A stretch of DNA of 34,779 bases from NCBI GenBank assembly GCA_012838875.1, contig DUOL01000072.1, positions 1 through 34,779 of the forward strand. The letters run 5' to 3'. The DNA is from Bacteroidales bacterium. GTDB lineage: Bacteria > Bacteroidota > Bacteroidia > Bacteroidales > WCHB1-69. The position numbers and the translations under genes were made by a program. The notes beneath the pieces are model-generated. The model was not told where the DNA came from. It worked only from the letters and a program-made list of their open reading frames with translations, and made no database searches. Below are positions 1,039-23,758 of the stretch, in pieces; the first letter of the stretch is position 1, and every line of letters begins with the position of its first letter.

Positions 1039-2166
1039 TTACAATTTTTGTTTTAATTGGGGTATTATTTCATTTTTCCATGACGCGAATACGCCCTCTT
1101 CTATTTTTTGTCTTGCGGTTTTAACTAATTCTAGATAAAAATGGAGATTGTGCAAACTTCCTATCATCATACCCAGAATTTCATCGGAAACGTAAAGATG
1201 TCGCAGATAGGCTTTTGTATATTCTCTATCTGCGAACAGGGAGCTTTGCGGGTCTATCGGCGTAAAATCGTTTTTCCACTTTTCATTTTTCATATTCATC
1301 GTTCCTTCCCAGGTAAAGAGCATACCATTTCTACCGTTACGCGTAGGTAGCACACAGTCGAACATATCGACCCCCATGGCGATACATTCCAATATATTTT
1401 GAGGCGTTCCGACTCCCATGAGATAACGAGGTTTATCTTCGGGCAAGACAGAACAAGCAATATCTACGGCATTATACATCTCTTCGACGTAGCCGCACAT
1501 TCCGCCGATAGCATTTCCTTCACAATTTTGTTCGGCAATAAATTCCGCCGATTGTTTTCTCAAATCCGGAAAAACACTTCCTTGCACAATCGGGAACAAG
1601 GCTTGTGAATAGCCATATTTTGGTTCGGTTCGATTAAAGTGTTCACAACAACGCTTAAGCCATTTATGCGTCAAGTGCATAGACCTTTTTGCGTAGCCGA
1701 TTTCGCACGGATAGGCTGTACATTCATCGAACGCCATAATAATATCTGCTCCGATAGAACGCTGAATATCTATCACTCCTTCCGGACTAAAAAGGTGCTT
1801 AGAACCGTCAATATGCGATTGGAACCAGACTCCTTCTTGCGGTTTTATTTTTCTTCGGTGGCTCAATGAAAAAACTTGGAACCCTCCACTGTCGGTCAAA
1901 ATGGGACGGTCCCAACCGTTAAACTTATGTAAGCCGCCTGCGGCTTCCAGCACTTCTATACCGGGACGTAAATAGAGATGATACGTATTTCCTAAGATAA
2001 TTTGTGCCTTAACCGCCTCTTTCATATCACGAATATGGACGGCTTTCACGGTTCCGAGCGTCCCGACAGGCATAAAAATAGGTGTTTGAATCTGTCCGTG
2101 GTCGGTCGTTAGGACTCCTGAGCGAGCACTACTTTTAATATCTTTTTTTTGAATTTCAAATTTCAT
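1039..2166 (-). CDS. tgt: queuine tRNA-ribosyltransferase
   Basis: 375 aa, full-length Tgt-like sequence (ARSGVLTTDHGQIQTPIFMPVGT, LTDSGGFQVFSL, GVGTP). Confidence 0.95.
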   Translation of the reverse strand: MKFEIQKKDIKSSARSGVLTTDHGQIQTPIFMPVGTLGTVKAVHIRDMKEAVKAQIILGNTYHLYLRPGIEVLEAAGGLHKFNGWDRPILTDSGGFQVFSLSHRRKIKPQEGVWFQSHIDGSKHLFSPEGVIDIQRSIGADIIMAFDECTAYPCEIGYAKRSMHLTHKWLKRCCEHFNRTEPKYGYSQALFPIVQGSVFPDLRKQSAEFIAEQNCEGNAIGGMCGYVEEMYNAVDIACSVLPEDKPRYLMGVGTPQNILECIAMGVDMFDCVLPTRNGRNGMLFTWEGTMNMKNEKWKNDFTPIDPQSSLFADREYTKAYLRHLYVSDEILGMMIGSLHNLHFYLELVKTARQKIEEGVFASWKNEIIPQLKQKL

Positions 2167-2201
2167 CTTGTTTTGTTAGTAAGTCTGTTAGTATTTTAAA
2201 G

Positions 2202-2209
2202 CAAAAATA
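2202..2209 (-). promoter_or_regulatory. Bacteroidota -7 promoter box (TATTTTTG) upstream of tgt
   Basis: Reverse complement of caaaaata matches the TAnnTTTG consensus, about 36 nt upstream of the tgt ATG. Confidence 0.5.
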
Positions 2210-2233
2210 CACTATTTCCTTTTAACTTTAAAA

Positions 2234-2241
2234 TATTTTTG
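2234..2241 (+). promoter_or_regulatory. Bacteroidota -7 promoter box (TATTTTTG) upstream of the GT2 gene
   Basis: tatttttg sits 24 nt upstream of the ATG at 2265, divergent from the tgt promoter. Confidence 0.5.
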
Positions 2242-2264
2242 TTCTCTATTTACGGAGTAATGTA

Positions 2265-3404
2265 ATGTCTTACCAAATTTATATTATTTTCATTACGCTT
2301 TTGGGGATTACCGTTTTAATAAACATCGGTTTTTACGCTATTCTTTTTTCAAAATTTGCCTTTCACAAAGCTAAAAAAGAGAAGCAATCTCCCCAAGAAC
2401 CCGTTTCAATAATAGTAGTAGCAAAAAATGAGGCACACCATCTTATTAACTCGCTGCCGCTTTTATTAACTCAACAGTATAATGATTATGAAGTCATTGT
2501 TGTCAATGACAACTCCGATGACGAAACGGAAGAAGTTTTAGAAGATTTTAAAAATAGGTATCCGCACTTAAAACCTATTAATCTAAAATCATCGGTAACG
2601 ACTATTAAGGGCAAGAAATTTCCTCTTTCGTTGGGAATCAGAGTTGCTAAAAACAATATTATAATTCTTACAGAGCCGTATTGCATACAAGTATCGCCTT
2701 ATTGGTTGCAAAACATGGCAAAACATTACAACCGTAAAACAGAAATCGTATTGGGGTTTGCCAATTACGAGAAAAAGAAAAGTCTCTTTAACGCTATTTT
2801 ACGTTTTGATGCTCTATATAAGACTATTCAAAATTTCTCTTATGCTTTGATGAAAATTCCGATTGCGGGTGACGGGAAAAATTTAAGTTACTCCAAAGAA
2901 CTGTTTATAAACCACGGAGGTTTTACCGCTCACAATCATATTTTTTTCGGAGACGATGACCTTTTTATTAATAAAGCAGCAACAAAAGAGAATTGCAAAA
3001 TTGAATATTCTAAAGATGCAATTATTACGGTAAAATCTAAATTTAACTTTAAATTTTGGCTAAGACAAGAAAAACTAAAGAGTCTTACGCGAAAATTCTA
3101 CTCTAACAAACATAAATTTCTTTTAACACTTTTTGAATCCTCTTCTCTCCTTTTCTACATTTTTCTCACTATAGCTCTCATTTTCCTTCCCTCGTTATCA
3201 CTCACTTGGATTATTCCATTGCTCGTTTTCTTTATCCTTAAGTTTGCTATTCAATATCTTATTGTAGGTTTGTCCGTTTCAAAATTGGGCGAAAAGAAAT
3301 TTATTCCTTATATTTTCGTTTATGATATAGTGTATCTATTTTTGTACTCTTATATTTTGTTGACGGCTAAATGGGGAAAAAACAATAGAAAAAAATGGAT
3401 GTAA
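2265..3404 (+). CDS. membrane-bound family 2 glycosyltransferase
   Basis: 379 aa. N-terminal TM helix, GT-A region (VSIIVVAKNE...YEVIVVNDNSDDET) and C-terminal TM helices. Confidence 0.8.
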   Translation: MSYQIYIIFITLLGITVLINIGFYAILFSKFAFHKAKKEKQSPQEPVSIIVVAKNEAHHLINSLPLLLTQQYNDYEVIVVNDNSDDETEEVLEDFKNRYPHLKPINLKSSVTTIKGKKFPLSLGIRVAKNNIIILTEPYCIQVSPYWLQNMAKHYNRKTEIVLGFANYEKKKSLFNAILRFDALYKTIQNFSYALMKIPIAGDGKNLSYSKELFINHGGFTAHNHIFFGDDDLFINKAATKENCKIEYSKDAIITVKSKFNFKFWLRQEKLKSLTRKFYSNKHKFLLTLFESSSLLFYIFLTIALIFLPSLSLTWIIPLLVFFILKFAIQYLIVGLSVSKLGEKKFIPYIFVYDIVYLFLYSYILLTAKWGKNNRKKWM

Positions 3405-4003
3405 AGAAAAAGATTACCGATAAAGCACAAAGAGATATTCTTTTGGTTACCGATGCTTTGCAAAACGGCAATCAACAGGCGTACGCTCAACTTTTGAAAA
3501 TTTATCGCGACCCTATTTACTATATGTTGTTAAAACTATGTAACAATCCTTATGATGCTGAAGATTTAACCATCGAAGCATTTGCCAAAGCCTTTAAGAA
3601 TCTTCATCAATACACAGACGACTTTGCTTTTTCCACGTGGCTATTTCGAATTGCAACGAACAATTGTATTGATTTTCTGAGACGAAAGAACAAGTCTATT
3701 CGCTGTTTAGACGATGACATTGAGAATTTTGAAGACCAAAGTACAATTTCAGCACTCGTTTCTACGGAGAACAACCCGGAAGAGTCATATATTGAAAAAC
3801 AACGCATACGGACGATGCGTTGGGCGGTGGAACAGCTACGTCCAAAATATAAAGAGCTTATTCGCCTACGCTATTTTGAAGAATTTTCTTACGAAGAGAT
3901 TGCTAATGAGTTGGGAATAAGTATAAATAATGTCAAGATTCAACTTTTTAGGGCTAAAGCCATGCTAACAACGCTGGTAGAAAACTTAAAACATAATATT
4001 TAG
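3395..4003 (+). CDS. RNA polymerase sigma-70 family (ECF-type) sigma factor
   Basis: 202 aa. Region 2 (DAEDLTIEAFAKAF...WLFRIATNNCIDFLRRK) and region 4 HTH (FSYEEIANELGISINNVKIQLFRAK). The start overlaps the GT2 stop by 10 nt. Confidence 0.85.
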   Translation: MDVKKKITDKAQRDILLVTDALQNGNQQAYAQLLKIYRDPIYYMLLKLCNNPYDAEDLTIEAFAKAFKNLHQYTDDFAFSTWLFRIATNNCIDFLRRKNKSIRCLDDDIENFEDQSTISALVSTENNPEESYIEKQRIRTMRWAVEQLRPKYKELIRLRYFEEFSYEEIANELGISINNVKIQLFRAKAMLTTLVENLKHNI

Positions 4004-4013
4004 TTTCCGATTT

Positions 4014-4511
4014 TTATTGTTCCAATTTAAAAAAGTCGTCATAATTCTTTGGATACCACCCTTTTTCGATTGCTTCTTTTTGAGGGAACATAAAGTAGAC
4101 CATTTCCGCCTCCGCACAAAGCTCACCCGCCTCATTTATAATCTCGGCAAAAATATAGCACAAATTTCTCTTTATTTCCCTTATCTTTCCACGAACTAAC
4201 ACGGACGATTGTGTAGACTCCAGCTGTTTTCTATATCGCACTTGTAAACGGGAGGTAACTCCGGAACTCTTTCCTTTGATATAAAGTGTCCATGCTCCGA
4301 TTTCATCGAGAAGGGTCGATTGAATGCCGCCGTGAATAGTTCCCGGATATCCTTCGTACTCTTTGGACGGTTTCCATTCTGCTTGCACATAGTCTCCCTC
4401 CTCAAAAAAATGCAACCGCAAGCCAATCTCATTAGTAGGCGAACAAGCGAAGCAGTGATAGTCATCTTTAGCAAAGACATTATTAATATAACGACGAATC
4501 GGTTTTTCCAT
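4014..4511 (-). CDS. PaaI-family hotdog-fold thioesterase
   Basis: 165 aa with the GTIHGGIQSTLLDE motif typical of PaaI/4HBT thioesterases. Confidence 0.7.
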   Translation of the reverse strand: MEKPIRRYINNVFAKDDYHCFACSPTNEIGLRLHFFEEGDYVQAEWKPSKEYEGYPGTIHGGIQSTLLDEIGAWTLYIKGKSSGVTSRLQVRYRKQLESTQSSVLVRGKIREIKRNLCYIFAEIINEAGELCAEAEMVYFMFPQKEAIEKGWYPKNYDDFFKLEQ

Positions 4512-7976: not shown

Positions 7977-8435
7977 ATGGGAGTAAGAAGAAAAAGATTA
8001 GCAGCAGAAGCACGAAAAGAGTCAAAAAAGAATATATACATGGCTCGTTTAATGAATAACCCTACATCACCTCGTAAAACACGACTCGTAGCTGATATGG
8101 TTAGAGGGAAAGATGTAGATTATGCTTTAAATGTATTGAAACACAATAATAGAGAGTCGGCAGAAAAGATTTTTAAACTCTTAAAATCAGCTATCGCTAA
8201 CTGGCAAACCAAAAATGAAGGTGTAAGATTAGAGGATGCTCAATTGTACATAAAAACAATTACGGTTGATGGTGGTAGAATGCTTAAACGTATTCGTACT
8301 GCTCCGCAAGGAAGAGCAAACAGAATAAGAAAACGCTCAAATCACATTACCATCATTCTCGGTGATAGAAATGCCAATATGGATATTGATATAAATGATA
8401 ATAATATAATAGAAGAAACTGAAAACATTAAATAA
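7977..8435 (+). CDS. rplV: 50S ribosomal protein L22 (uL22)
   Basis: 152 aa. [16 protein letters not shown] and [15 protein letters not shown] motifs. Has a short acidic/Asn-rich C-terminal tail. Confidence 0.96.
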
Positions 8436-8443
8436 ATTTTAGC

Positions 8444-9166
8444 ATGGGGCAAAAAGTTAATCCAATAGGTTTAAGATTAGGAATTATTAGAAGCTGGGAT
8501 TCTAATTGGTACGGTGGAAAAAATTTCGCTGATAAAATAGTTGAAGACGACAAAATCAGAAGATATTTGAATGCTCGTTTATATAAAGCCGGCATATCAA
8601 AAATTTATATAGAGAGAACACTTAAGCTTGTTACAGTTACTATCCACACCGCTCGTCCGGGTCTTATTATAGGAAAAGGAGGAACTGAAGTTGATAAACT
8701 GAAAGAAGAGTTGAAAAAAATTACTAATAAAGAGATACAAATTAATATCTCCGAAGTAAAACGCCCTGATTTAGATGCTGTACTGATTGCTCAAAATATT
8801 GCAAAACAGATAGAGGGTAGGATTTCGTACAGAAAAGCTATTAAAACTGCCATTGCTTCTACAATGCGAGCAAATGCAGAAGGGATAAAAGTTTCCATCT
8901 CCGGTCGTTTGGGAGGTGCTGAAATGGCAAGAACAGAGCATTTTAAAGAAGGAAGAACTCCATTACATACTCTACGTGCAGATATTGATTATGCTAAAGC
9001 CGAAGCTCATACGACCTACGGTCGAATCGGTCTCAAAGTATGGATATGTAGAGGTTTAGTTTATGGCAAAAAAGATTTGTTTAACTTGGCAGACAGTGGA
9101 AAAGATGCTAAAGGAGCCGGTGGAAGAAGACCTCCAAGAAGAGTAAGAGCCGAAAAGAATAGATAA
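8444..9166 (+). CDS. rpsC: 30S ribosomal protein S3 (uS3)
   Basis: 240 aa, starts [14 protein letters not shown]; KH domain; position in cluster. Confidence 0.97.
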
Positions 9167-9203
9167 TATTGAATAAAGTAGAAAACAATATAAATATATA
9201 GCG

Positions 9204-9629
9204 ATGTTACAACCAAAAAAGACGAAATACAGAAGACCGCAAAAGGGGAGAATGAAAAATATCACCAAACGTGGAAGTGAGATAGCTTTCGGGTCGTTTG
9301 CCATTAAGACGTTGGAACAACAGTGGATAACCGGTAGACAGATTGAAGCGGCACGACAAGCCATTACACGTTACATGAAACGTGAAGGACAGTTGTGGAT
9401 ACGTATTTTCCCGGACAAACCAATTACTAAAAAACCTGCCGAAGTTCGTATGGGTAAAGGTAAAGGTTCGCCCGAGTTATTTGTTGCTCGCGTTAGTCCC
9501 GGTAGAATTTTATTTGAAGCTGACGGCGTTCCCTTCGAAGTTGCAAAAGAAGCCCTTCGCTTAGGAGCTCAAAAATTACCCGTAGCTACAAAATTTGTTG
9601 TTAGAAGAGATTATTCCGAAGAAATATAA
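9204..9629 (+). CDS. rplP: 50S ribosomal protein L16 (uL16)
   Basis: 141 aa, starts [16 protein letters not shown]. Confidence 0.97.
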
Positions 9630-9634
9630 TAGAG

Positions 9635-9844
9635 ATGAAACAAAAAGTTATACATGAACTTTCTACCCCTGAGGTAATTGAAAGATTAGCGGAAGAGGAA
9701 AAACATTTGATTAAAATGAAATTAAATCATGCCGTATCTCCTCTTGAGAATCCTAATAAGATTAAAGAACAACGAAGAACCGTTGCTCGACTTAAGACAG
9801 AATTACGCAAACGTGAAATTAATCAACAATTGAAATCAGAATAA
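9635..9844 (+). CDS. rpmC: 50S ribosomal protein L29 (uL29)
   Basis: 69 aa, helical; sits between rplP and rpsQ. Confidence 0.92.
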
Positions 9845-9849
9845 GGATT

Positions 9850-10107
9850 ATGGAAGAAAGAAATAAAAGAAAAATCAGAGAAGGTCTTGTTGTTAGTAAT
9901 AAGATGGATAAATCTATCATTGTTAGCGTAGAAAGAAGATTTAAACACCCTAAATACGGCAAGTTTTTAAAGAAAAATTCAAAGTTGGCAGCTCATGACG
10001 AAAAAAATGAGTGCAACATCGGAGATAAAGTAAGAGTTATGGAAACCAGACCCATAAGTAAAACGAAGTGCTGGCGTTTAGTAGAAATTATTGAAAGAGC
10101 GAAATAG
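9850..10107 (+). CDS. rpsQ: 30S ribosomal protein S17 (uS17)
   Basis: 85 aa; [27 protein letters not shown]. Confidence 0.96.
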
Positions 10108-10109
10108 TT

Positions 10110-10478
10110 ATGGTACAACAAGAATCAAGATTATTAGTAGCTGATAACAGCGGTGCAAAAGAAGTACTCTGCATCCGCGTGTTAGGTGGAACTAGAAAAC
10201 GCTACGCCGGCGTAGGAGATAAAATTATTGTTACTGTTAAAAGTGCTATCCCCGCCGGAAATATTAAAAAAGGAACAGTCTCTAAAGCTGTTATAGTAAG
10301 AACTAAAAACCGAATACGAAGAGGGGACGGCTCTTATATCAAGTTTGACGATAATGCCGTAGTTCTGCTTACAGCAGCGGAAGAACTAAGAGGAACCCGT
10401 ATTTTCGGACCTGTAGCTCGCGAACTTCGCGAAAAACAGTATGTGAAAATTATCTCTCTAGCTCCTGAAGTTCTTTAA
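10110..10478 (+). CDS. rplN: 50S ribosomal protein L14 (uL14)
   Basis: 122 aa, starts [18 protein letters not shown]. Confidence 0.97.
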
Positions 10479-10541
10479 GAAAGCAAAAATTAATAAATAT
10501 AAATGGACAATTGACAAAGACCAATTGCAAAAAAAAGAAAA

Positions 10542-10856
10542 ATGAAAATACATATTAAAAAAGGTGATATCGTAAAAGTAATAGCCGGTAATTCAAAAGG
10601 ATTACAAGGTAAGGTACTGAAAGTGGATAAAGATAAGTATAGAGCTTTAGTAGAAGGTATGAACCTCATACAAAAACATACGAAAGCTAATGCTAAAAAT
10701 CCACATGGTGGCATTATTAAAAAAGAAGCCCCTATTCATCTCTCAAATTTGATGGTTGTAGATTCTAAAGGAAATGCAACCCGAATTGGCAGAAGATTAG
10801 GCGAAAAAGGTAAATTAGTTAGATATTCTAAAAAAACAGGAGAGGAGATTAAATAA
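10542..10856 (+). CDS. rplX: 50S ribosomal protein L24 (uL24)
   Basis: 104 aa; [18 protein letters not shown] motif. Confidence 0.96.
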
Positions 10857-11410
10857 TGTACACACCAAGATTTAAAGAGAAATATTTAAAAGAAATCGTT
10901 CCCGCTTTAAAGGAACAATTTGGTTTTACTTCCGTAATGAGAGTACCGAAAATTACCAAAATTTGTCTAAACCAAGGACTTGGTAAATATGGAATCGCCG
11001 ATAAAAAACTCCTCGATGTCGGAGTGGAAGAGATGACAATGATTGCAGGGCAAAAAGCTGTTCAGACAAAGTCTAAAAAAGACATCTCGAACTTTAAATT
11101 AAGACGCGGCATGCCTATCGGCGTTCGAGTAACGTTACGCGGCGAAAGAATGTACGAATTTCTCGATAGATTAGTATCGGTTTCCATTCCTCGTATTCGC
11201 GACTTTAGAGGTATTAGCGATAAAGGATTTGACGGTCGTGGAAATTATACGTTAGGTGTTCCCGAACAGATTATCTTCCCCGAAATTGATATCGACAAAG
11301 TGGCAAAAATTAACGGAATGGATATCACATTCGTTACTACCGCCCGAAACGACAAAGAGTGCTTAGCACTATTAAAAGAATTTGGATTACCGTTTAAAAA
11401 TCAAAAATAG
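10856..11410 (+). CDS. rplE: 50S ribosomal protein L5 (uL5)
   Basis: 184 aa. The ATG overlaps the rplX stop (taATG). Contains IPRIRDFRG. Confidence 0.97.
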
Positions 11411-11413
11411 AAT

Positions 11414-11719
11414 ATGGCAAAAGAATCATTGAAAGCAAAAGAGGTAAAAAGAGCACGTTTAGTGGCTAAATATGCCGCAAAACGGACTGAATTAAAGAAG
11501 ATTATTAACAGCAATGATAATGATTATGAAGCAAAACAAGCGGCTATTATTGCTTTGCAAAAATTGCCACCCAATTCTAACCCGATTAGAATGCATAATC
11601 GCTGTAAATTAACGGGACGTCCAAAAGGATATATACGTCAGTTTGGCATTTCTCGTATTAATTTTAGAGAAATGGCTTTAGCAGGGCTTATTCCCGGAGT
11701 AAAAAAAACAAGTTGGTAA
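11414..11719 (+). CDS. rpsN: 30S ribosomal protein S14 (uS14, long non-zinc form)
   Basis: 101 aa; C-terminal [26 protein letters not shown]. Confidence 0.95.
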
Positions 11720-11743
11720 TATTTTAAAAAGAAGTAGAGAATT

Positions 11744-12142
11744 ATGAATACCGATCCGATTTCAGATTATTTAACAAGAATAAGAAATGCCATTATGGCA
11801 AATCATAAAGTTGTAGAGATTCCAACCTCAAAAATCAAAAAAGAGATTACCAAAATTTTGTTTGAGAAAGGTTATATCTTAAATTATAAATTTATTGACG
11901 ATACCCACCCCGGCACTATCAAAATCGCTCTAAAATATCACCCCGTTACTAAATTGTCTGCTATTAATAAATTGCAACGTGTTAGTAAACCGGGACTGCG
12001 TAAATATGTGAATGTTGAACAAATGCCTTCCGTGTTAAATGGGTTGGGCATTGCCATTATTTCTACATCACGTGGCATGATGACCGATAAAGAGGCTAAA
12101 GCGCAAAACGTTGGTGGAGAAGTTTTATGTTACATTAGTTAA
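11744..12142 (+). CDS. rpsH: 30S ribosomal protein S8 (uS8)
   Basis: 132 aa, starts [16 protein letters not shown]. Confidence 0.97.
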
Positions 12143-12160
12143 AAATAAGGAGAGAGAGAT

Positions 12161-12718
12161 ATGTCAAGAATTGGAAAATTGCCAATCACGCTCCCTAAAG
12201 GAGTCGAAATTTCAAGAGATGAAAAAACAAATATTGTTACCGTTAAAGGTTCTCTTGGCGAACTAAAACAGTATGTTGACGGGGCTATTAACTATACAAT
12301 CGAAGATGGTCATGTAGTTTTAACAAGAGCGACCGAACAAAAAAGACACAAAGCCTTACATGGGCTATACAGATCGCTGCTTGCCAATATGATAAAAGGA
12401 GTTTCCGAAGGTTTTGAAGTTAAACAAGAACTTGTCGGTGTCGGATACAAAGCTGAAGCTAAAGGGCAACAATTAGAACTTTCATTAGGCTACTCACACA
12501 ATATTCTTTTTGAACTACCTCAAGAGGTAAAAGTAGAAACCATTACGGAAAAAGGGAAAAATCCTATTATTGTGCTTAAAGGAACCGACAAACAACTCTT
12601 AGGACATATTGCAAGTAAAATTCGTTCCTATAGAAAACCTGAACCTTACAAAGGAAAAGGTATCCGCTTTGTTGGAGAAGAAGTTAGAAGAAAAACAGGT
12701 AAAACAGCTGAAAAATAA
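12161..12718 (+). CDS. rplF: 50S ribosomal protein L6 (uL6)
   Basis: 185 aa, starts MSRIGKLPITLPKGVE. Confidence 0.97.
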   Translation: MSRIGKLPITLPKGVEISRDEKTNIVTVKGSLGELKQYVDGAINYTIEDGHVVLTRATEQKRHKALHGLYRSLLANMIKGVSEGFEVKQELVGVGYKAEAKGQQLELSLGYSHNILFELPQEVKVETITEKGKNPIIVLKGTDKQLLGHIASKIRSYRKPEPYKGKGIRFVGEEVRRKTGKTAEK

Positions 12719-12736
12719 TAAAAAGGAGATACGAAA

Positions 12737-13096
12737 ATGGCTTATAATCAAAAAGAATATAGAAGAAAACGAATCAAACAAAGAATTCGTAAAATTGTTA
12801 ACGGTACGCCGGAACGCCCGAGAATGTCCGTCTTTAGAAGTAATCACGATATTTACGTTCAGCTTATTGATGATATCGCAGGGCACACCCTATTGTCCGC
12901 CTCTTCTGCTATTCCCGAAATACAAGAACAGAAAATTACAAAAACAGAAAAATCTGCTCTCGTAGGGAAATTAATCGCACAAAAAGCAAAAGAAGCCGGC
13001 ATCGAAAAAGTTACATTCGACCGTAACGGCTATTTATATCATGGTAGAGTTAAATCTTTGGCAGAAGCAGCTAGAGAAGGTGGTTTAATTTTCTAA
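12737..13096 (+). CDS. rplR: 50S ribosomal protein L18 (uL18)
   Basis: 119 aa; [20 protein letters not shown] and [13 protein letters not shown]. Confidence 0.96.
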
Positions 13097-13106
13097 GAAA
13101 AAAAAT

Positions 13107-13625
13107 ATGACAAATATTAATATGCAACGAGTAAAATCAGCCGAAATTGAATTTAAAGACAGATTAGTAGCTGTTAACAGAGTAACAAAAGTAACAAAAG
13201 GGGGACGTACGTTCAGTTTCTCCGCTATTGTCGTAGTGGGTAACGAAAATGGCGTAGTAGGTTACGGCTTAGGAAAAGCAAAAGAAGTTTCAGCAGCGAT
13301 ACAAAAAGGAATTGACGATGCAAAAAAGAACCTTATTCGCGTTCCTATTCTTAAAGGCACCCTTCCGCACGCTCAGGAAGGAAAATATAGCGGTGCGTCC
13401 GTCTTTATGAAACCTGCCGCTCCCGGTACAGGAGTTATTGCCGGTGGTGCTATGCGTGCCGTTTTGGAAAGTGTCGGCATTAAAGACGTTCTCGCTAAAT
13501 CTAAAGGAGCTTCCAATCCTCATAGCGTAGTAAAAGCTACCATCAGAGCTTTGGCACAAATTCGCGACCCCTACGCCGTGGCACAAGTTAGGGGTATCCC
13601 TCTCGAAAAAGTTTTTAACGGCTAA
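13107..13625 (+). CDS. rpsE: 30S ribosomal protein S5 (uS5)
   Basis: 172 aa; [24 protein letters not shown]. Confidence 0.97.
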
Positions 13626-13708: not shown

Positions 13709-13783
13709 ACGTGGGGTTAAGTAATATCTGAAGTCCTCGACAAATATCTTCTGTTAGGATAAAAATATTTTTATTTTTCTTTT

Positions 13784-13963
13784 GGGCGTGCCCCCTCGCT
13801 ATGCTCGGGGTCGGCGCCCGGTTCCAAGTCCGCGGGCACAAGCCGTGGGGACGCAAAGCGGCAAAAAGAGCTTACAAGCTCGCTTTTTTGCCGCAGCGTC
13901 CCCAACGGCTTCCGCCCTTGCGGGCTTTCCACCTAAGCGCCTCACGCAACCAACTTACTCATG
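13784..13963 (-). repeat. GC-rich imperfect-palindrome repeat, copy B (reverse orientation)
   Basis: 13784-13898 is the near-exact reverse complement of 1-115. The core ends at ...cctcacgc (13947). A further 16 nt (13948-13963) still match the inner flank of copy C at 12/16 positions. Confidence 0.9.
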
Positions 13964-14121
13964 CAGAAATATTAAACTTTGAGCTTTACACGCTTTTTGG
14001 AATAGTATCCGAAAAACTTGTAGAACACAGTGTCCTCTTGTGCCCTCCCAAGTTGTTGTACTACAAGAAAAACGTAATTTGGGGTATGAAACATGAGTTA
14101 GGACTTCACGTTTAAAATTTT

Positions 14122-14350: not shown

Positions 14351-15031
14351 CTATCTTTTCTTTATTTCGTAATACCGTTTGTAATTTTCAATTTGTTTGA
14401 AAAAGTTTTCAGGGGACAATTTTTCTGTTATTAGTTTTGCAAATTGCTTTCCAAACCCTCTTTCCAAATTTGTTTTAATTACTTTGCCTGTTTTTTCGTC
14501 GATATTAACTAAAAATATACAAAGTTCATTGGGTCGGTGTGCTTGCGGAACGTCATAAATAAGTTTCAAATATTTTGTAATGTCTTTTTCATTGATAACT
14601 TCTATTTTTGAGGGCGTTACAGGATCGTTTTTCTTATAATACGGTGTTTGATAACGCATTATAATAATGTGTGCGTATGGAATTTGTTTTGCCTGTATGT
14701 TAGCGGTTTCGCCCATCATATTCTCAAAATAATTGTTAGCATTTTGCTTGTAATTGCTAGTTATAAACTTTATCCCCAAACAAAAGACTGGCGTTCCACC
14801 TTTCAGAACAGCAATATCAACATCTTTCGGATAATACTTTCCTTCAATTGTTGCTTCTTTTGAGCTTTCACTTAGATAGTGAATCTCGTACTTTTTACCC
14901 CATATCTCTTTGAGCGTATCTGCCATAAATTTATGAATTGGAAGAAGTTTTTGGGTACTTCTTGCTCCGTATTCTTTATATTTTTCAAATGAGTTTTTTA
15001 TGGCTTGTATTATTTTTTTTTCTTGGTACAT
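14351..15031 (-). CDS. putative type II restriction endonuclease (PD-(D/E)XK-like), partner of the adjacent methyltransferase
   Basis: 226 aa from the ATG at 15031; the track starts 2 codons earlier at TTG 15037. Candidate nuclease core is PKDVDIAVLKGGTPVFCLGIKF (D...x-K). It starts 2 nt after the methyltransferase TGA. I did not recognise a named REase family. Confidence 0.6.
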   Translation of the reverse strand: MYQEKKIIQAIKNSFEKYKEYGARSTQKLLPIHKFMADTLKEIWGKKYEIHYLSESSKEATIEGKYYPKDVDIAVLKGGTPVFCLGIKFITSNYKQNANNYFENMMGETANIQAKQIPYAHIIIMRYQTPYYKKNDPVTPSKIEVINEKDITKYLKLIYDVPQAHRPNELCIFLVNIDEKTGKVIKTNLERGFGKQFAKLITEKLSPENFFKQIENYKRYYEIKKR

Positions 15032-15033
15032 AC

Positions 15034-16536
15034 TCAAAATAATGTTAATGGATTTTTATAATTTATTTTAAATTCTTTTATCTGCTTGGATGTTATAGAC
15101 TTATAACCGCCTGAAAAATCTTTACTTGTCAAGCGGATATATTTATAAAACTCTTCGGATTGCAACGTATTTTCAATAATTCGCCATTCTGAATGTGGAT
15201 TTTTTTTAATAATAAATAACCCTGAATACATAAGTACATCTTTTGGCAACTTATAAAATTCAATACCATCATTGACGAGTGTACTTAATACAATTTTCTC
15301 ATTATGAATTGATTGCACTCCTTGACTTCGCCCGTATTCGTACCACAAAGCACCTTTATCAATGTCTCTATTTTCCAATTCAGTCCTATTTTTTAGAAAA
15401 TAATTATAGCAATTTGGATAATTTGTTTTCATTTTATCTTCTGGAATAACGTAATACCTACCTTTTATCAATTCATAGGGAAAGATAATTTTGATGTTTG
15501 CATCAATTACTCCTTTAAAACGCGACCCTTTTACAACGGTTTTTAATATACTTTTTTCAATCAATTCATTGTTAAACCACACAAGATTTTTGTTGTCTGA
15601 TTGCGTAATTTTCGCAATAAACACTTTATCTCTCAACGTAGCAAAACCATACTGAACATCAAAAAAATCTTTGATTGCTGAGTTTCTTCCGTTGTTTAAA
15701 TCGTTGAGAAAAACCGTATTCTCATTGTTTGAGAAAGACCAATCTTTGCTATTTAACTCACTGTATTTCACATTATTTACAAAAATAATTTTGTCGTTTT
15801 CTAATTCTTTGTATGTAAAAAAATCTTTATTGTAATTTTTCTGAAATACTGAAATAGCTGTGTATGTGGAAAATCCTTTGAAAAGTTTATTTGCTTTGAA
15901 ATCGATGAGAGTATGTACAGTTTTTTCGCGTTTCAGGAATTCTCTAAATTTCTTATACGAAGAATTGTGAAGATAACTATTTGGGGTAATATACCCTAAC
16001 AAACCACTAGTTTTTAACATTTTAAGCCCCATTTCAAAAAACGAAAGATAAATATCAATCGTGCCTTCCGAAAACTGAAAATCATTTTTCAGAGTTTCCC
16101 TTGTTTCCAAATCTAAGTTGTGTATTCGTATGTAAGGCGGATTGCCAACAACAAAATCAAATTTTGAAATATTGTTTTTATAGAAATCTAATGTATTGGT
16201 ATTTAATATGTTCCAATTTATTTTAGGGAGTTGGAATTCGTTTTTGAGTAATGTATTTAAGTTTTCAATGCATTTAGCATATTCTTTTTCATCTATCTCT
16301 ACACCAACTATATACGTTTCAATATCTAAAATTATTTGTTTGTCGTCTGCCTGATTTTCTCTTGCAATTTTTATATATCGTCTGACAATTTCGGTCAAAA
16401 ATGCTCCATCACCACAAGACGGCTCTAGGATATATTTCTTCAAAATATCTTTGCCATTATAGCCTACAATATCTAATATTTCGCAGACAATCCATTGTGG
16501 TGTATAAACTTGTCCTAGTGTTTTGTGTTTCGACAT
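15034..16536 (-). CDS. gamma-class N6-adenine DNA methyltransferase (TaqI/Eco57I-like with C-terminal target-recognition domain)
   Basis: GQVYTP near the N-terminus, motif I EPSCGDGAF, motif IV GNPPY, and a long C-terminal TRD-like region. I place the start at ATG 16536 (MSKHKTLGQVYTP) because a TATATTTG promoter box lies inside the longer track ORF. It is the only CDS in the window that ends in TGA. Confidence 0.9.
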   Translation of the reverse strand: MSKHKTLGQVYTPQWIVCEILDIVGYNGKDILKKYILEPSCGDGAFLTEIVRRYIKIARENQADDKQIILDIETYIVGVEIDEKEYAKCIENLNTLLKNEFQLPKINWNILNTNTLDFYKNNISKFDFVVGNPPYIRIHNLDLETRETLKNDFQFSEGTIDIYLSFFEMGLKMLKTSGLLGYITPNSYLHNSSYKKFREFLKREKTVHTLIDFKANKLFKGFSTYTAISVFQKNYNKDFFTYKELENDKIIFVNNVKYSELNSKDWSFSNNENTVFLNDLNNGRNSAIKDFFDVQYGFATLRDKVFIAKITQSDNKNLVWFNNELIEKSILKTVVKGSRFKGVIDANIKIIFPYELIKGRYYVIPEDKMKTNYPNCYNYFLKNRTELENRDIDKGALWYEYGRSQGVQSIHNEKIVLSTLVNDGIEFYKLPKDVLMYSGLFIIKKNPHSEWRIIENTLQSEEFYKYIRLTSKDFSGGYKSITSKQIKEFKINYKNPLTLF

Positions 16537-16565
16537 CGTACTTTTTCTTTCTATATTCTGTCTTG

Positions 16566-16573
16566 CAAATATA
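16566..16573 (-). promoter_or_regulatory. Bacteroidota -7 promoter box (TATATTTG) for the M-R operon
   Basis: Reverse complement of caaatata, 30 nt upstream of ATG 16536. Confidence 0.55.
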
Positions 16574-16858
16574 ATACTTTTTTTTGCCAACATTCTTCTT
16601 TTCGCAGCATTGCGTGCAACGGTTCGGGCATTTTACGAAATGATTTGCACTCAACAGCTGATTTATGCAACAAAGATACACATAAAAATAAAATTTTCAA
16701 TTCAATGATTTTAGCTTTTTTATCATTAGGTTACTTTGTATTGTAACTACCTTATAATTAGTGATATAAATTGGCATATTTTATAATTGCTTTAAAGTCA
16801 AGAGTTTTGAATTTTCAATTTGCACTTCTTAATATTTTCTCTTTCCTAAAATCCTTTG

Positions 16859-17040
16859 TACGAGCAAGTTGGCTGCGTGAGGGCGCAGGCGGAAAGCCCG
16901 TAAGGGCGGCAGCCGCTGGGGACGCGGCCGCAAAAAAGCGACTTTAGAAGCTCTTTTTGCCGCCTTGCGACCCCACGGCTACCGCCCGCGGACTTGTAGC
17001 CGAAGACCGACCCGTGAGCGCTAGCGAACGGGGCACGCCC
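16859..17040 (+). repeat. GC-rich imperfect-palindrome repeat, copy C (forward orientation)
   Basis: Core 16875-17040 runs gcgtgagggcgc...ggggcacgccc. It is collinear with copy E, with a variant central loop (gcgactttagaagc) and variant arm segments. Followed by the tail aaaagaaaaata, shared with copy B. Confidence 0.9.
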
Positions 17041-17259
17041 AAAAGAAAAATATGATTTTTATAATGCTTTTACCTTTTTTTATAATTTTAAGTATGGTAA
17101 TTCTGCTATTTTTTTACTACTTTTGTATCCGTTTTGATAAAGAAATATGCGAATGAATAAAATTTCGATATTTGTCGTAAAACGCTTTAAAAATGCACCT
17201 TTATATGCTAAAACTGCAGAAAAGACTTATTTTTATTTATACAAACAATTTCACTAATA

Positions 17260-21408: not shown

Positions 21409-21444
21409 ATAATCTTATTTTCTTAATAATCAGATTTTTTATTA

Positions 21445-21553
21445 GGGCGTACCCCCTCGCTGCGCTCGGGGTCGGTCTTCGGTTCCAAGTCCGCGGGCAC
21501 AAGCCGTGGGGTCGCAAAGCGGCAAAAAGAGCTTCTAAAGTCGCTCTTTTGTG
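21445..21553 (-). repeat. GC-rich imperfect-palindrome repeat, copy D (reverse orientation, truncated just past the centre)
   Basis: gggcgtaccccctcgctgcgctcgggg...gcttctaaagtcgctcttttgtg. Similarity to the other copies stops at about 21553, where a gene remnant begins. Confidence 0.85.
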
Positions 21554-22171: not shown

Positions 22172-23233
22172 CTACTCATAATATTGAAATTCACGCTCTG
22201 TGATTTCTTTCGGTGTATCATTTTCGAATGCGATTCGCTTAGTCCAGTTCTTATGTTCGTCATATTCATATTGCCAACTAAATTTCTCCGATGACTTTCC
22301 TTTTGCGTTGCGTCTATTTCCTTCTATCTTATTTCCTTGCTCATCATATTTATAAGTAGTCTTCCAATCTAAACCACCTGTTGAATTGTACTCATTTATC
22401 TCTATCAACTCTCCCTGTCTATCATATTTATAACTATACTTCTCATTTAAGGTGCCGTCAAAATTGTAACGAATCATATTATATTCCATCTTATTTCCAT
22501 GCTCGTCATAATTATAAATACCCTTCCAATTAAAATTACCGTCTGCATCGCACTCATTTTCCTCAATCAATTCTCCCTGCTCATTATATTTGTATGTATA
22601 TTTATAATTTAAAATACCCTTTGCCTTATCATACTCATTTTTTTCAATCAATATCCCCTTCTCATCATATATATAAGTACGCATAATGGAGATGGCATCT
22701 CTTAAACTGTAATTTTTTTCTTTTATCATGTGTCCTTGCTTGTCATATTTATAAGTAGTTCTAAGGAATGATTTACCTTGTAAATTGTATGAACACCACT
22801 TTTCTTTAATCATTTTTCCTTTCTTGTTATACTTATAAATTTTCTTCTCTTTCAAACTATCGTTTGAAAGAGAACCTTTTTCTTCAATCATCTTTCCTTG
22901 CTTATTATATTTATAAGTATACTTCCTATCTAAACTACCATCAGAAAGATACTCATTACTTTCAATCATATTCCCTCGCTCATCATATTGCCGTTGAAAA
23001 TGATATATTACGTTTCCCTTTTTAACTTTTCCCAAACTATTAATCGCTTCATATGTGAATTGGGTATAAGTCTTAACTTTACCTTTAAGACCATCTTTCG
23101 CCCAATTGTTGGATGGTTCGCTATTCTCGCAACCTTGTCCTTGCGTTTGATTTATAAAACCAAATAGTACTAACAACACAAATGCTGTTATTCTCATCTT
23201 TTTTAAGTGTGCTAAATACATTCTATTTTTCAT
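22172..23233 (-). CDS. lipoprotein built from about 9 YD-type repeats
   Basis: 353 aa. Signal peptide with Cys (FINQTQGQGC). Recurrent Y-x-Y-[DN]-x-x-G-x-x-I-E units (YKYNKQGKMIEE, YKYDKQGHMIKE, YKYNEQGELIEE, YKYDRQGELIEI, YKYDEQGNKIEG). Confidence 0.7.
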   Translation of the reverse strand: MKNRMYLAHLKKMRITAFVLLVLFGFINQTQGQGCENSEPSNNWAKDGLKGKVKTYTQFTYEAINSLGKVKKGNVIYHFQRQYDERGNMIESNEYLSDGSLDRKYTYKYNKQGKMIEEKGSLSNDSLKEKKIYKYNKKGKMIKEKWCSYNLQGKSFLRTTYKYDKQGHMIKEKNYSLRDAISIMRTYIYDEKGILIEKNEYDKAKGILNYKYTYKYNEQGELIEENECDADGNFNWKGIYNYDEHGNKMEYNMIRYNFDGTLNEKYSYKYDRQGELIEINEYNSTGGLDWKTTYKYDEQGNKIEGNRRNAKGKSSEKFSWQYEYDEHKNWTKRIAFENDTPKEITEREFQYYE

Positions 23234-23481: not shown

Positions 23482-23648
23482 GCGTGAGGCGCTTAGGTGG
23501 AAAGCCCGCAAGGGCGGAAGCCGCTGGGGACGCGGCGGCAAAAAAGCGAGCTTGTAAGCTCTTTTTGCCGCCTTGCGACCCCACGGCTTGTGCCCGCGGA
23601 CTTGGAACCGGGCGCCGACCCGTGAGCGCTAGCGAACGGGACACGCCC
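23482..23648 (+). repeat. GC-rich imperfect-palindrome repeat, copy E (forward orientation, full length)
   Basis: 167 nt, gcgtgaggcgcttaggtgg...gggacacgccc, with 113 G+C by hand count. Followed by the tail aaaagaaaa. Confidence 0.92.
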
Positions 23649-23758
23649 AAAAGAAAATTATTACAAATTTAATTATACATTTTTTAAAGTACTTTTTTGT
23701 AAAATCCTTCGTTATTCATTATTATCATAAAAACATAATATATTTCTCAAACTGCAAA

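Follow-up and report, generated by a model that had tools for sequence, protein, structure and literature searches.

The GC-rich repeat at 16875–17040 of the 34,779-nt window, which is the whole stretch of Bacteroidales DNA analyzed here, folds into a branched structure, and it appears well supported that selection keeps it foldable. The explanation toward which we lean, with slightly better than even confidence, is that this core would be a self-folding module within a terminal inverted repeat of ~220–250 bp that bounds transposon-like units. Read from left to right, such a unit would consist of an A/T tail, a core on the (−) strand, an inner module of ~50 nt, cargo or a spacer, a second inner module, a core on the (+) strand and a second A/T tail, with the cacgccc ends facing outwards. 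The window would hold two of these, unit 1 between copies B and C and unit 2 between copies D and E.

The core bounded by gcgtg (16875) and cacgccc (17040) comprises 166 nt on the (+) strand. Along the window the copies follow one another as A(+), B(−), C(+), D(−) and E(+). They are listed here with the cargo of the two proposed units.

1–145 (core part 1–116), (+) strand: copy A, the 3′ two-thirds of the core and the A/T tail, the rest being cut off by the contig start
13759–14005, (−) strand: copy B, left end of proposed unit 1, with A/T tail 13759–13786, GC-rich core 13787–13950 and inner 5′ module ~13951–14005
14351–16593, (−) strand: cargo of proposed unit 1, encoding a 226-aa protein and a 519-aa Eco57I-type restriction-modification methylase
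16822–16874, (+) strand: inner 5′ module of copy C, ~53 nt with CTTTCC-type short repeats, a small hairpin and CAAGTTGG
16875–17040, (+) strand: core of copy C, right end of proposed unit 1
17041–17066, (+) strand: outer tail of copy C, A/T-rich and an inverted repeat of the copy B tail
21425–21551 (core ~21445–21551), (−) strand: copy D, left end of proposed unit 2, made up of the tail and the 3′ ~107 nt of the core, 5′-truncated with the inner part gone
22172–23233, (−) strand: cargo of proposed unit 2, encoding a 353-aa RHS-repeat protein
23482–23675 (core 23482–23650), (+) strand: copy E, right end of proposed unit 2, A/T tail included, with only CTTTCC-type repeats in its 5′ flank

Copy A is the right end of a unit that continues on another contig.

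Fold, covariation and strand preference of the core

RNAalifold, a hand-refined structure and single-sequence folding concur on a three-way junction in which the 165-nt core forms three helical arms. P1 is a 5-bp closing stem, GCGUG/CACGC (16875–16879 with 17034–17038 in copy C). P2–P7 make up a long irregular rod of ~50 bp (~16882–17009 in copy C) that holds conserved G·A mismatches, bulges and an A-rich helix, and P8 is a 3′ hairpin (17011–17032 in copy C). The unpaired motifs GAGG, GGAAAGCCCG, GCGGACUUG and CCGAC are invariant across genera. The folding energy of copy C is −88.4 kcal/mol, which corresponds to z = −4.6 against 200 shuffles.

The test set for this structure comprised 35 sequences, drawn from three species of the host genus. 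Standard pairs fill 92.9% of the cells as compared with 83.3% after shuffling, and none of 500 shuffles scored as high. The initial annotation had proposed compensatory substitutions in the terminal hairpin, and these are borne out on the larger set: double changes occur in 24 of the 56 pairs, versus 4–9 when the 3′ partners are slid by 1–3 columns, the covariation score is 0.24 versus 0.05–0.07 in the slid controls, and P8 is among the covarying helices. Compensatory changes affect P1, P3, P5, P6, P7 and P8 and are seen among copies of one genome as well as from species to species and from genus to genus. Between subfamilies, entire helices are swapped for unrelated complementary sequences.

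The sequence features described earlier at 16875–17040 had all been read correctly. The terminal hairpin has the form CCCC-gagc(ata/gca)gcga-GGGG in copies A, B and D and the form CCCGT-gagcgctagcga-ACGGG in copies C and E. In the host genome (G000; 2.03 Mb, 36.5% GC, 261 contigs, 96% complete), the short CCCC...GGGG form of P8 is found in 176 copies and the long CCCGU...ACGGG form in 42, with variable loops, while sister species have CGGC-GAA-GCCG or GGCC-AAC-GGCC at this site; in another genus, P1 is GCAUU/AAUGC. The central stem likewise has an A-T pair in copy B and an A:A mismatch in copies C and E, as had been claimed. The position concerned is T in copies A and B and A in copies C, D and E, and genome-wide the A-T pair occurs in 120 copies and A:A in 65.

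A second hairpin, GCCC-GNRA-GGGC, fared differently. Its GCAA or GTAA motif is present, but the hairpin is not conserved and does not covary: tested directly on the 35 sequences it is 74% paired and shows no double change, and in 12–18 of the 35 two of the four pairs do not form. The same GGGC columns pair instead with a 3′ GCCC, as illustrated by column pair 35–120, which is formed in 35 of 35 sequences (GC 21, AU 12, GU 2), and single-sequence folds likewise choose GGGC with the downstream GCCC. Because the hairpin is not conserved, the use of its GNRA tetraloop as an argument for strand specificity fails.

The strand-specific fold itself is favored by other evidence. On the gcgtgagg→cacgccc strand, G:U pairs occupy 89 cells among the copies of the host genome versus 12 for A:C; for variants present in ≤3 copies, a tally that is nearer to counting events, the numbers are 27 and 12 (p = 0.024). 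With RNA parameters, 81 of 97 copies fold more stably as this sense strand than as the complement. With DNA parameters the two strands of copy C are about equal, at −48.8 and −49.0 kcal/mol. On these grounds the preference for one strand is real but moderate, and compatible with RNA or with single-stranded DNA. Thus, of the proposal that the repeat is selected as a folded nucleic acid, the fold has held up, and the sequence data alone fit RNA and single-stranded DNA alike.

It is very unlikely that this pattern arose with no selection for folding at all, from palindrome arms whose likeness was maintained through intrastrand repair or gene conversion and through the need of both to bind the same protein. 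The rod is a long imperfect palindrome, copy C as DNA has nearly equal folding energies on its two strands, and the copies are homogenized within each species, all of which this reading would accommodate. Arm-to-arm copying, however, leaves the excess of G:U over A:C unexplained, as it does the conserved asymmetric bulges and G·A mismatches, the covariation of P8, which has no partner arm, and the change of P1 from GCGUG/CACGC to GCAUU/AAUGC between genera.

Copies as paired inverted ends

The host genome contains ~230–270 copies of the repeat. Blastn returned 316 pieces that make up 2.1% of its DNA, with 199 5′ starts, 238 3′ ends and 97 full-length internal copies, 89 of which are intergenic. 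Genuine 5′ truncations and 3′ truncations are both rare. All copies have the A/T-rich 3′ tail, ~20–25 nt of the CTAATAAAAATTAAAATTATT type, and about half have the conserved inner module of ~53 nt on the 5′ side. This module is followed by the core in 92 of ~93 real occurrences, and no empty target sites for it were found. Of the 522 contig ends, 174 lie inside the repeat and a further 40 inside a variant subfamily. One repeat family accordingly accounts for ~2% of the genome and for more than 40% of its contig breaks, which is of practical value for the assembly and binning of these common anaerobic-digester and sediment bacteria.

Clustering of the contig ends revealed one minor second repeat besides the element. 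This unrelated sequence of ~150 nt, with the motifs GTACTTTTGT...ACAAAAGTAC and GGAGGAAATGC, ends at least eight contigs (C104_R, C166_L, C152_R, C183_L and four others). Self-comparison of the genome gave gene pairs only and no other multi-copy insertion sequence. At three further loci (C198:20347–20369, C116:1855–1876 and C188:279–301) only the first ~23 nt of the core (GCGTGAGGCGCTTAGGTGGAAAG) are present, with an identical break base; these stubs could be footprints of excision or of recurrent deletion.

Of 76 pairs of adjacent copies in the host genome, 67 are oppositely oriented and 9 are oriented alike (p = 4e-12). In 40 pairs the copies stand head-to-head, (−)(+), so that their 5′ ends face each other; the median interval is 1.7 kb, and the spacers measure 24–244 nt in 14 pairs and 1.2–10 kb in the remainder. 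Tail-to-tail intervals are longer, the median of the 54 being 8.7 kb and the shortest measuring at least 1.6 kb. The outer A/T tails of a pair are inverted repeats of one another, and partner ends in the window are 83% (B–C) and 88% (D–E) complementary, with 97% for B and E, so that ends of different units resemble each other more closely than partner ends do. The 14 close doublets are short non-coding units bounded by terminal inverted repeats. As doublets at different loci have homologous spacers in common, they were copied as units. From the alternating orientation and the head-to-head enclosure, the copies would be the two inverted ends of transposon-like units, and the repeat at 16875–17040 is, as far as its arrangement indicates, one end of such a larger unit. 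The earlier treatment of the repeat as a stand-alone unit has to be given up for this, while the option of hairpins that act during transposition stays.

No target-site duplication of 6–9 bp was detected around single copies or units, as shared 6–9-mers at symmetric offsets were not in excess over shuffled pairs; the outer tips within the variable A/T tails are ill-defined, which makes this a weak test. A SINE-like retroelement was considered in view of the A-rich, microsatellite-like tails and the truncated copy D, and was rejected as no RVT_1 reverse transcriptase was found in the host genome.

Accessory or defense genes are located in ~10 of the ~22 head-to-head intervals examined in the host genome. 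They include Eco57I, AlwI with a D12 methyltransferase, an EcoRI methylase, a second D12 methyltransferase, GmrSD, a CBASS SMODS cyclase, RloB with AAA_21, a NERD-helicase, an HTH protein with an M78 peptidase, and RHS. Other intervals contain genes for a release factor, RecX, RecG, FKBP, pyruvate:ferredoxin oxidoreductase (POR) and a glycosyltransferase, and such housekeeping genes fit poorly with simple cargo. Either the units carry accessory cassettes or the elements are drawn to variable regions. All units found in the host genome are non-autonomous; in the explanation that we favor, the short doublets would be MITE-like and the cargo units would resemble mobile insertion cassettes. If the units are mobile, they offer a route for defense genes within and between Bacteroidales.

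We consider it rather unlikely that the module goes further than this and is a required folded cofactor, either RNA or single-stranded DNA of the transferred strand, of a new type of cargo-carrying transposon that shuttles restriction-modification and other defense cassettes around Bacteroidales chromosomes. In that case the exchange of rods and the alternation of paired ends would be functional features, for example self-folding ends that tolerate very long inverted repeats, or a replication-linked choice of orientation.

Related elements and candidate transposases

The same ends also bound an autonomous element, which is present in another genus of the family and on metagenome contigs. In the complete genome G043 (3.47 Mb), a core(−), a single 341-aa ORF and a core(+) follow one another in a 2.0-kb unit. 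The gene is present in 11 full-length copies with 57–100% identity that fall into two subfamilies, and the 2-kb units align end to end inside each of them. The subfamilies have a common terminal framework (P1, the P2 loop, CCGGAGACCGAC and P8) and different rods. The ORF matches the IS1595 transposase model NF033547 with E = 1e-15 and 58 bits, where the NCBIfam cut-off is 75, and the IS1/IS1595 zinc-binding domain NF050000 with 3e-11, above the cut-off; its match to the Pfam Zn_ribbon_IS1595 domain is weak. It is thus predicted to encode an IS1595-like DDE transposase with an N-terminal zinc ribbon, the main family match being below the cut-off. Among 151 genomes, homologs with ≥48% identity were found in all five element-bearing genomes of the G043 genus (G043, G057, G069, G089 and G097) and nowhere else.

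Independent metagenome contigs show the order core(−), transposase, core(+) again, with proteins that are 55–58% identical. One metagenome element has different rods at its two ends, and in one the right end (contig L261) is a minimal hairpin that has neither rod nor P8. The minimal end and the unlike rods indicate that the GC-rich fold is a modular elaboration of an insertion-sequence end. These comparisons show the core to be homologous to the long terminal repeats that an IS1595-like insertion sequence has in related genomes.

No homolog of the 341-aa transposase was found in the host genome or in the two sister species, all of which are fragmented MAGs with a contig floor of 1.5 kb, and the failure to find the gene therefore does not equal its absence. 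An IS1595-like transposase may move, or may have moved, the units of the host genome in trans, and its gene may have been lost there or may be unassembled since the repeats break the assembly. The ability to fold would be maintained on the strand that reads outwards and has the transposon tip at its 3′ end. At the ends, an RNA hairpin directed outwards might act as an insulator or terminator of transcription, or locally folded ends might allow two long inverted repeats to lie near each other and be handled by the transposase. The purpose of folding is the least certain step of this explanation. IS1595-family elements make 8-bp duplications (ISfinder), and the failure to detect target-site duplications around the units counts, as a weak negative, against this explanation.

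Short tandem repeats of 6–8 nt lie just outside the cacgccc-type tips in G043 and on metagenome contigs (L207–L226 and L261–L263). They vary by copy (GACNACN, AATGAAGA, GAGTTAA or AATGTGCT) and are TTAAAA in the host genome; slippage, repeated footprints or target preference are candidate origins.

A covariance model built from the alignment detected the element in 24 of the 151 genomes and in 10 of the 22 genera of the family, a patchy distribution. A sequence-pattern search of genome contigs was too loose, most of its hits being chance matches in GC-rich genomes, and only the Lentimicrobiaceae and Bacteroidales MAGs with hits on several contigs were informative. Named MAGs with the element on several contigs are Lentimicrobiaceae, Bacteroidales or Bacteroidetes. 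The element family occurs within a single Bacteroidales family, probably the Lentimicrobiaceae. Carriage by phages was rejected, as each of the 19 pattern hits on viral contigs proved to be a chance match within coding sequence and the covariance model gave no hit there.

In each of the three species of the genus, copy B follows the gene for ribosomal protein S5, yet every ortholog has its own species' version of P6 and P8, a pattern that points to homogenization inside genomes or to repeated replacement. Around the orthologous genes in G001 and G002, where synteny is broken, nothing corresponding to copies C and E lies within 1.8 kb. The identical arrangement around copy C is present in other metagenomes.

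The synteny of one copy across three species, the covariation and invariant unpaired motifs across genera and the excess of G:U over A:C on one strand could all be expected of stand-alone small RNA genes or cis-regulatory RNAs with a role independent of mobility, for which spread would be secondary. We regard this as highly improbable. An Rfam scan of the window at gathering thresholds gave only a tRNA and no family at the element, and a local Rfam scan of the element by E-value gave only sub-threshold look-alikes of microRNA hairpins. The orientation of copies is random with respect to neighboring genes and no gene family is enriched beside them, which also led us to reject a partner gene adjacent to the copies. 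Neither the strict inverted pairing nor the role of the module at the ends of insertion sequences would be expected if these were RNA genes, and the same is true of an insertion-sequence end that lacks the rod and P8 entirely. The ωRNA of a TnpB/IscB system was rejected as well, as the host genome gave no TnpB-type match above the cut-off and no HEARO or other Rfam match was found; both flanks of the scaffold are conserved modules and not variable guides.

A second enzyme has to be weighed against the IS1595-like transposase. In a REPIN/RAYT-like system, a Y1 (HUH) transposase of the IS200-like or REP-associated kind would move the units in the form of folded single-stranded DNA, and the conserved fold would be its substrate. 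We hold this to be possible but doubtful. Y1_Tnp genes lie 200–950 nt from a copy at 7 of the 12 loci examined, in three genera, and both Y1 genes of the sister species G002 are near copies. In relatives, Y1 is flanked by copies on both sides in three loci (L233, L235 and L237) and on one side in four (L231, L232, L234 and L236). In G043 the order for one Y1 clade is core(−), an array of 53-nt repeats, Y1, an inverted array and core(+), and many copies there have one 53-nt repeat unit on the inner side. The inverted doublets, the absence of a detected target-site duplication and the hundreds of copies are REPIN-like traits, and a switch of orientation in one G043 subfamily (0–1.73 Mb versus 1.96–2.82 Mb) recalls the replication-linked bias of single-stranded DNA transposons.

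Several observations are difficult to reconcile with Y1 as the driver. Y1 genes occur in 115 of the 151 genomes of the family whether the element is present or not, and none was found in the fragmented assemblies G000 and G001. The Y1 proteins adjacent to copies belong to several clades and are only 41–51% identical to each other. They score above the cut-off of the IS200 model but reach only 20–26 bits with the RAYT model NF047646, which requires 80, and in G043 the Y1 gene is not single-copy as expected for a RAYT but has three copies of 91–96% identity. The 53-nt repeat with its small hairpin is a more likely Y1 substrate than the core, and the Y1-bearing units could be cargo of the DDE enzyme, which is present in 11 copies in G043. 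As for the orientation switch, dnaA lies away from the switch points and the second G043 subfamily has the opposite bias. The Y1 genes between the same ends nevertheless count against a settled choice of the IS1595-like enzyme as the driver.

Inverted tandem arrays of the 53-nt repeat are present on both sides of Y1 genes at the G043 loci L236, L237 and L239, for example at L237:1176–1405 and 1960–4108, with ~40 units on one side. The unit consists of a small imperfect palindrome and GTCTCCN heptads, a REP/BIME-like organization in Bacteroidales. Copies of one G043 subfamily are on the (−) strand between 0 and 1.73 Mb (9 of 9), mostly on the (+) strand between 1.96 and 2.82 Mb and on the (−) strand at 3.36 Mb; the orientation of a second subfamily is the mirror image, and the gene-strand bias shifts at about the same places. 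Replication-linked insertion, a polarity of units with unlike ends or an old inversion are possible causes of these domains. A replichore explanation was rejected, as dnaA, at 2.646 Mb, is inside a domain and GC skew, taken from 20-kb samples, was uninformative; the gene-strand bias agrees with the domains but is indirect evidence. Nor is orientation set by the better-folding strand, as the sense strand is more stable in both subfamilies and yet their biases are opposite. In the host genome copy orientation has no relation to the majority gene strand of the contig.

Comparison with known mobile elements, and other features of the window

The element is most likely not a new RNA gene; its closest kinds are structured MITEs, IS1595-type insertion sequences with cassettes, and REPIN-RAYT systems. 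Like the MITEs Correia (Neisseria), ERIC (enterobacterial) and bcr1 (Bacillus cereus), it is non-coding and intergenic, with 100–250 copies per genome, and it shares with them an inverted-repeat architecture, long hairpins and a partner enzyme that is often unknown. Compensatory changes have been reported in ERIC and bcr1. The present element differs from these in that each end is a 165-nt three-way-junction fold and two ends make up the mobile unit, in that the units often have 1–5 kb of cargo with no TA or 8-bp duplication detected, and in its host, an uncultured Bacteroidales lineage.

With IS1595 elements it has in common the inverted ends, the many copies and an autonomous relative with one ORF, in which an IS1/IS1595-type N-terminal zinc ribbon precedes an IS1595-like catalytic region. 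Unlike in IS1595, the protein falls below the family cut-off, the terminal repeats are ~230 bp and internally structured as compared with the typical 15–40 bp, the rods may differ between ends, one end is without a rod, and no 8-bp duplication was seen. The passengers without a transposase and the inverted insertion-sequence-type ends recall mobile insertion cassettes (MICs) and composite-transposon-like modules, whose inverted repeats are short in the case of MICs, whereas the ends here are long and structured. The strict alternation of end orientation along the DNA is also found in pdif modules; these, however, use 28-bp Xer sites on plasmids, while the units described here are chromosomal and very numerous.

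The likeness to REPIN-RAYT systems extends to inverted doublets, hairpin folding, hundreds of copies, Y1 genes between inverted copies in relatives, long-term vertical persistence and within-genome homogenization. REPs, in contrast, are simple hairpins (20–40 nt palindromes with a GTAG or CGTC tag), whereas the cores measure 165 nt, and the Y1 genes here are multi-copy, score as IS200 and were not found in the host genome. If the ends are those of a transposon, the element offers a clean natural case in which compensatory change preserves the internal fold of a transposon end from genus to genus even as the helices are exchanged like modules.

Other features of the window were recorded along with the repeat. 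A ribosomal protein operon occupies 7977–13625 on the (+) strand, with L6 and S5 confirmed by Pfam. Its last gene is that for S5, and where L30/L15/SecY would usually come next there are a terminator-like hairpin and copy B. The direct-repeat families D1 and D2 (~78–81 nt spacing) at 22307–23011 are coding repeats within the 353-aa RHS gene and are unrelated to the GC-rich element. A Por_Secre_tail protein is also encoded in the window, in keeping with Bacteroidota, and an 84-nt tRNA gene with a long variable arm at 31735–31818 on the (−) strand is its sole Rfam hit. Elsewhere in the host genome, a frame of 1309 aa (C46:3107–6178, locus L011) has a weak match to the Cas12f/TnpB zinc ribbon (E = 5e-4, below the cut-off), and its product may be a Cas12-type protein.
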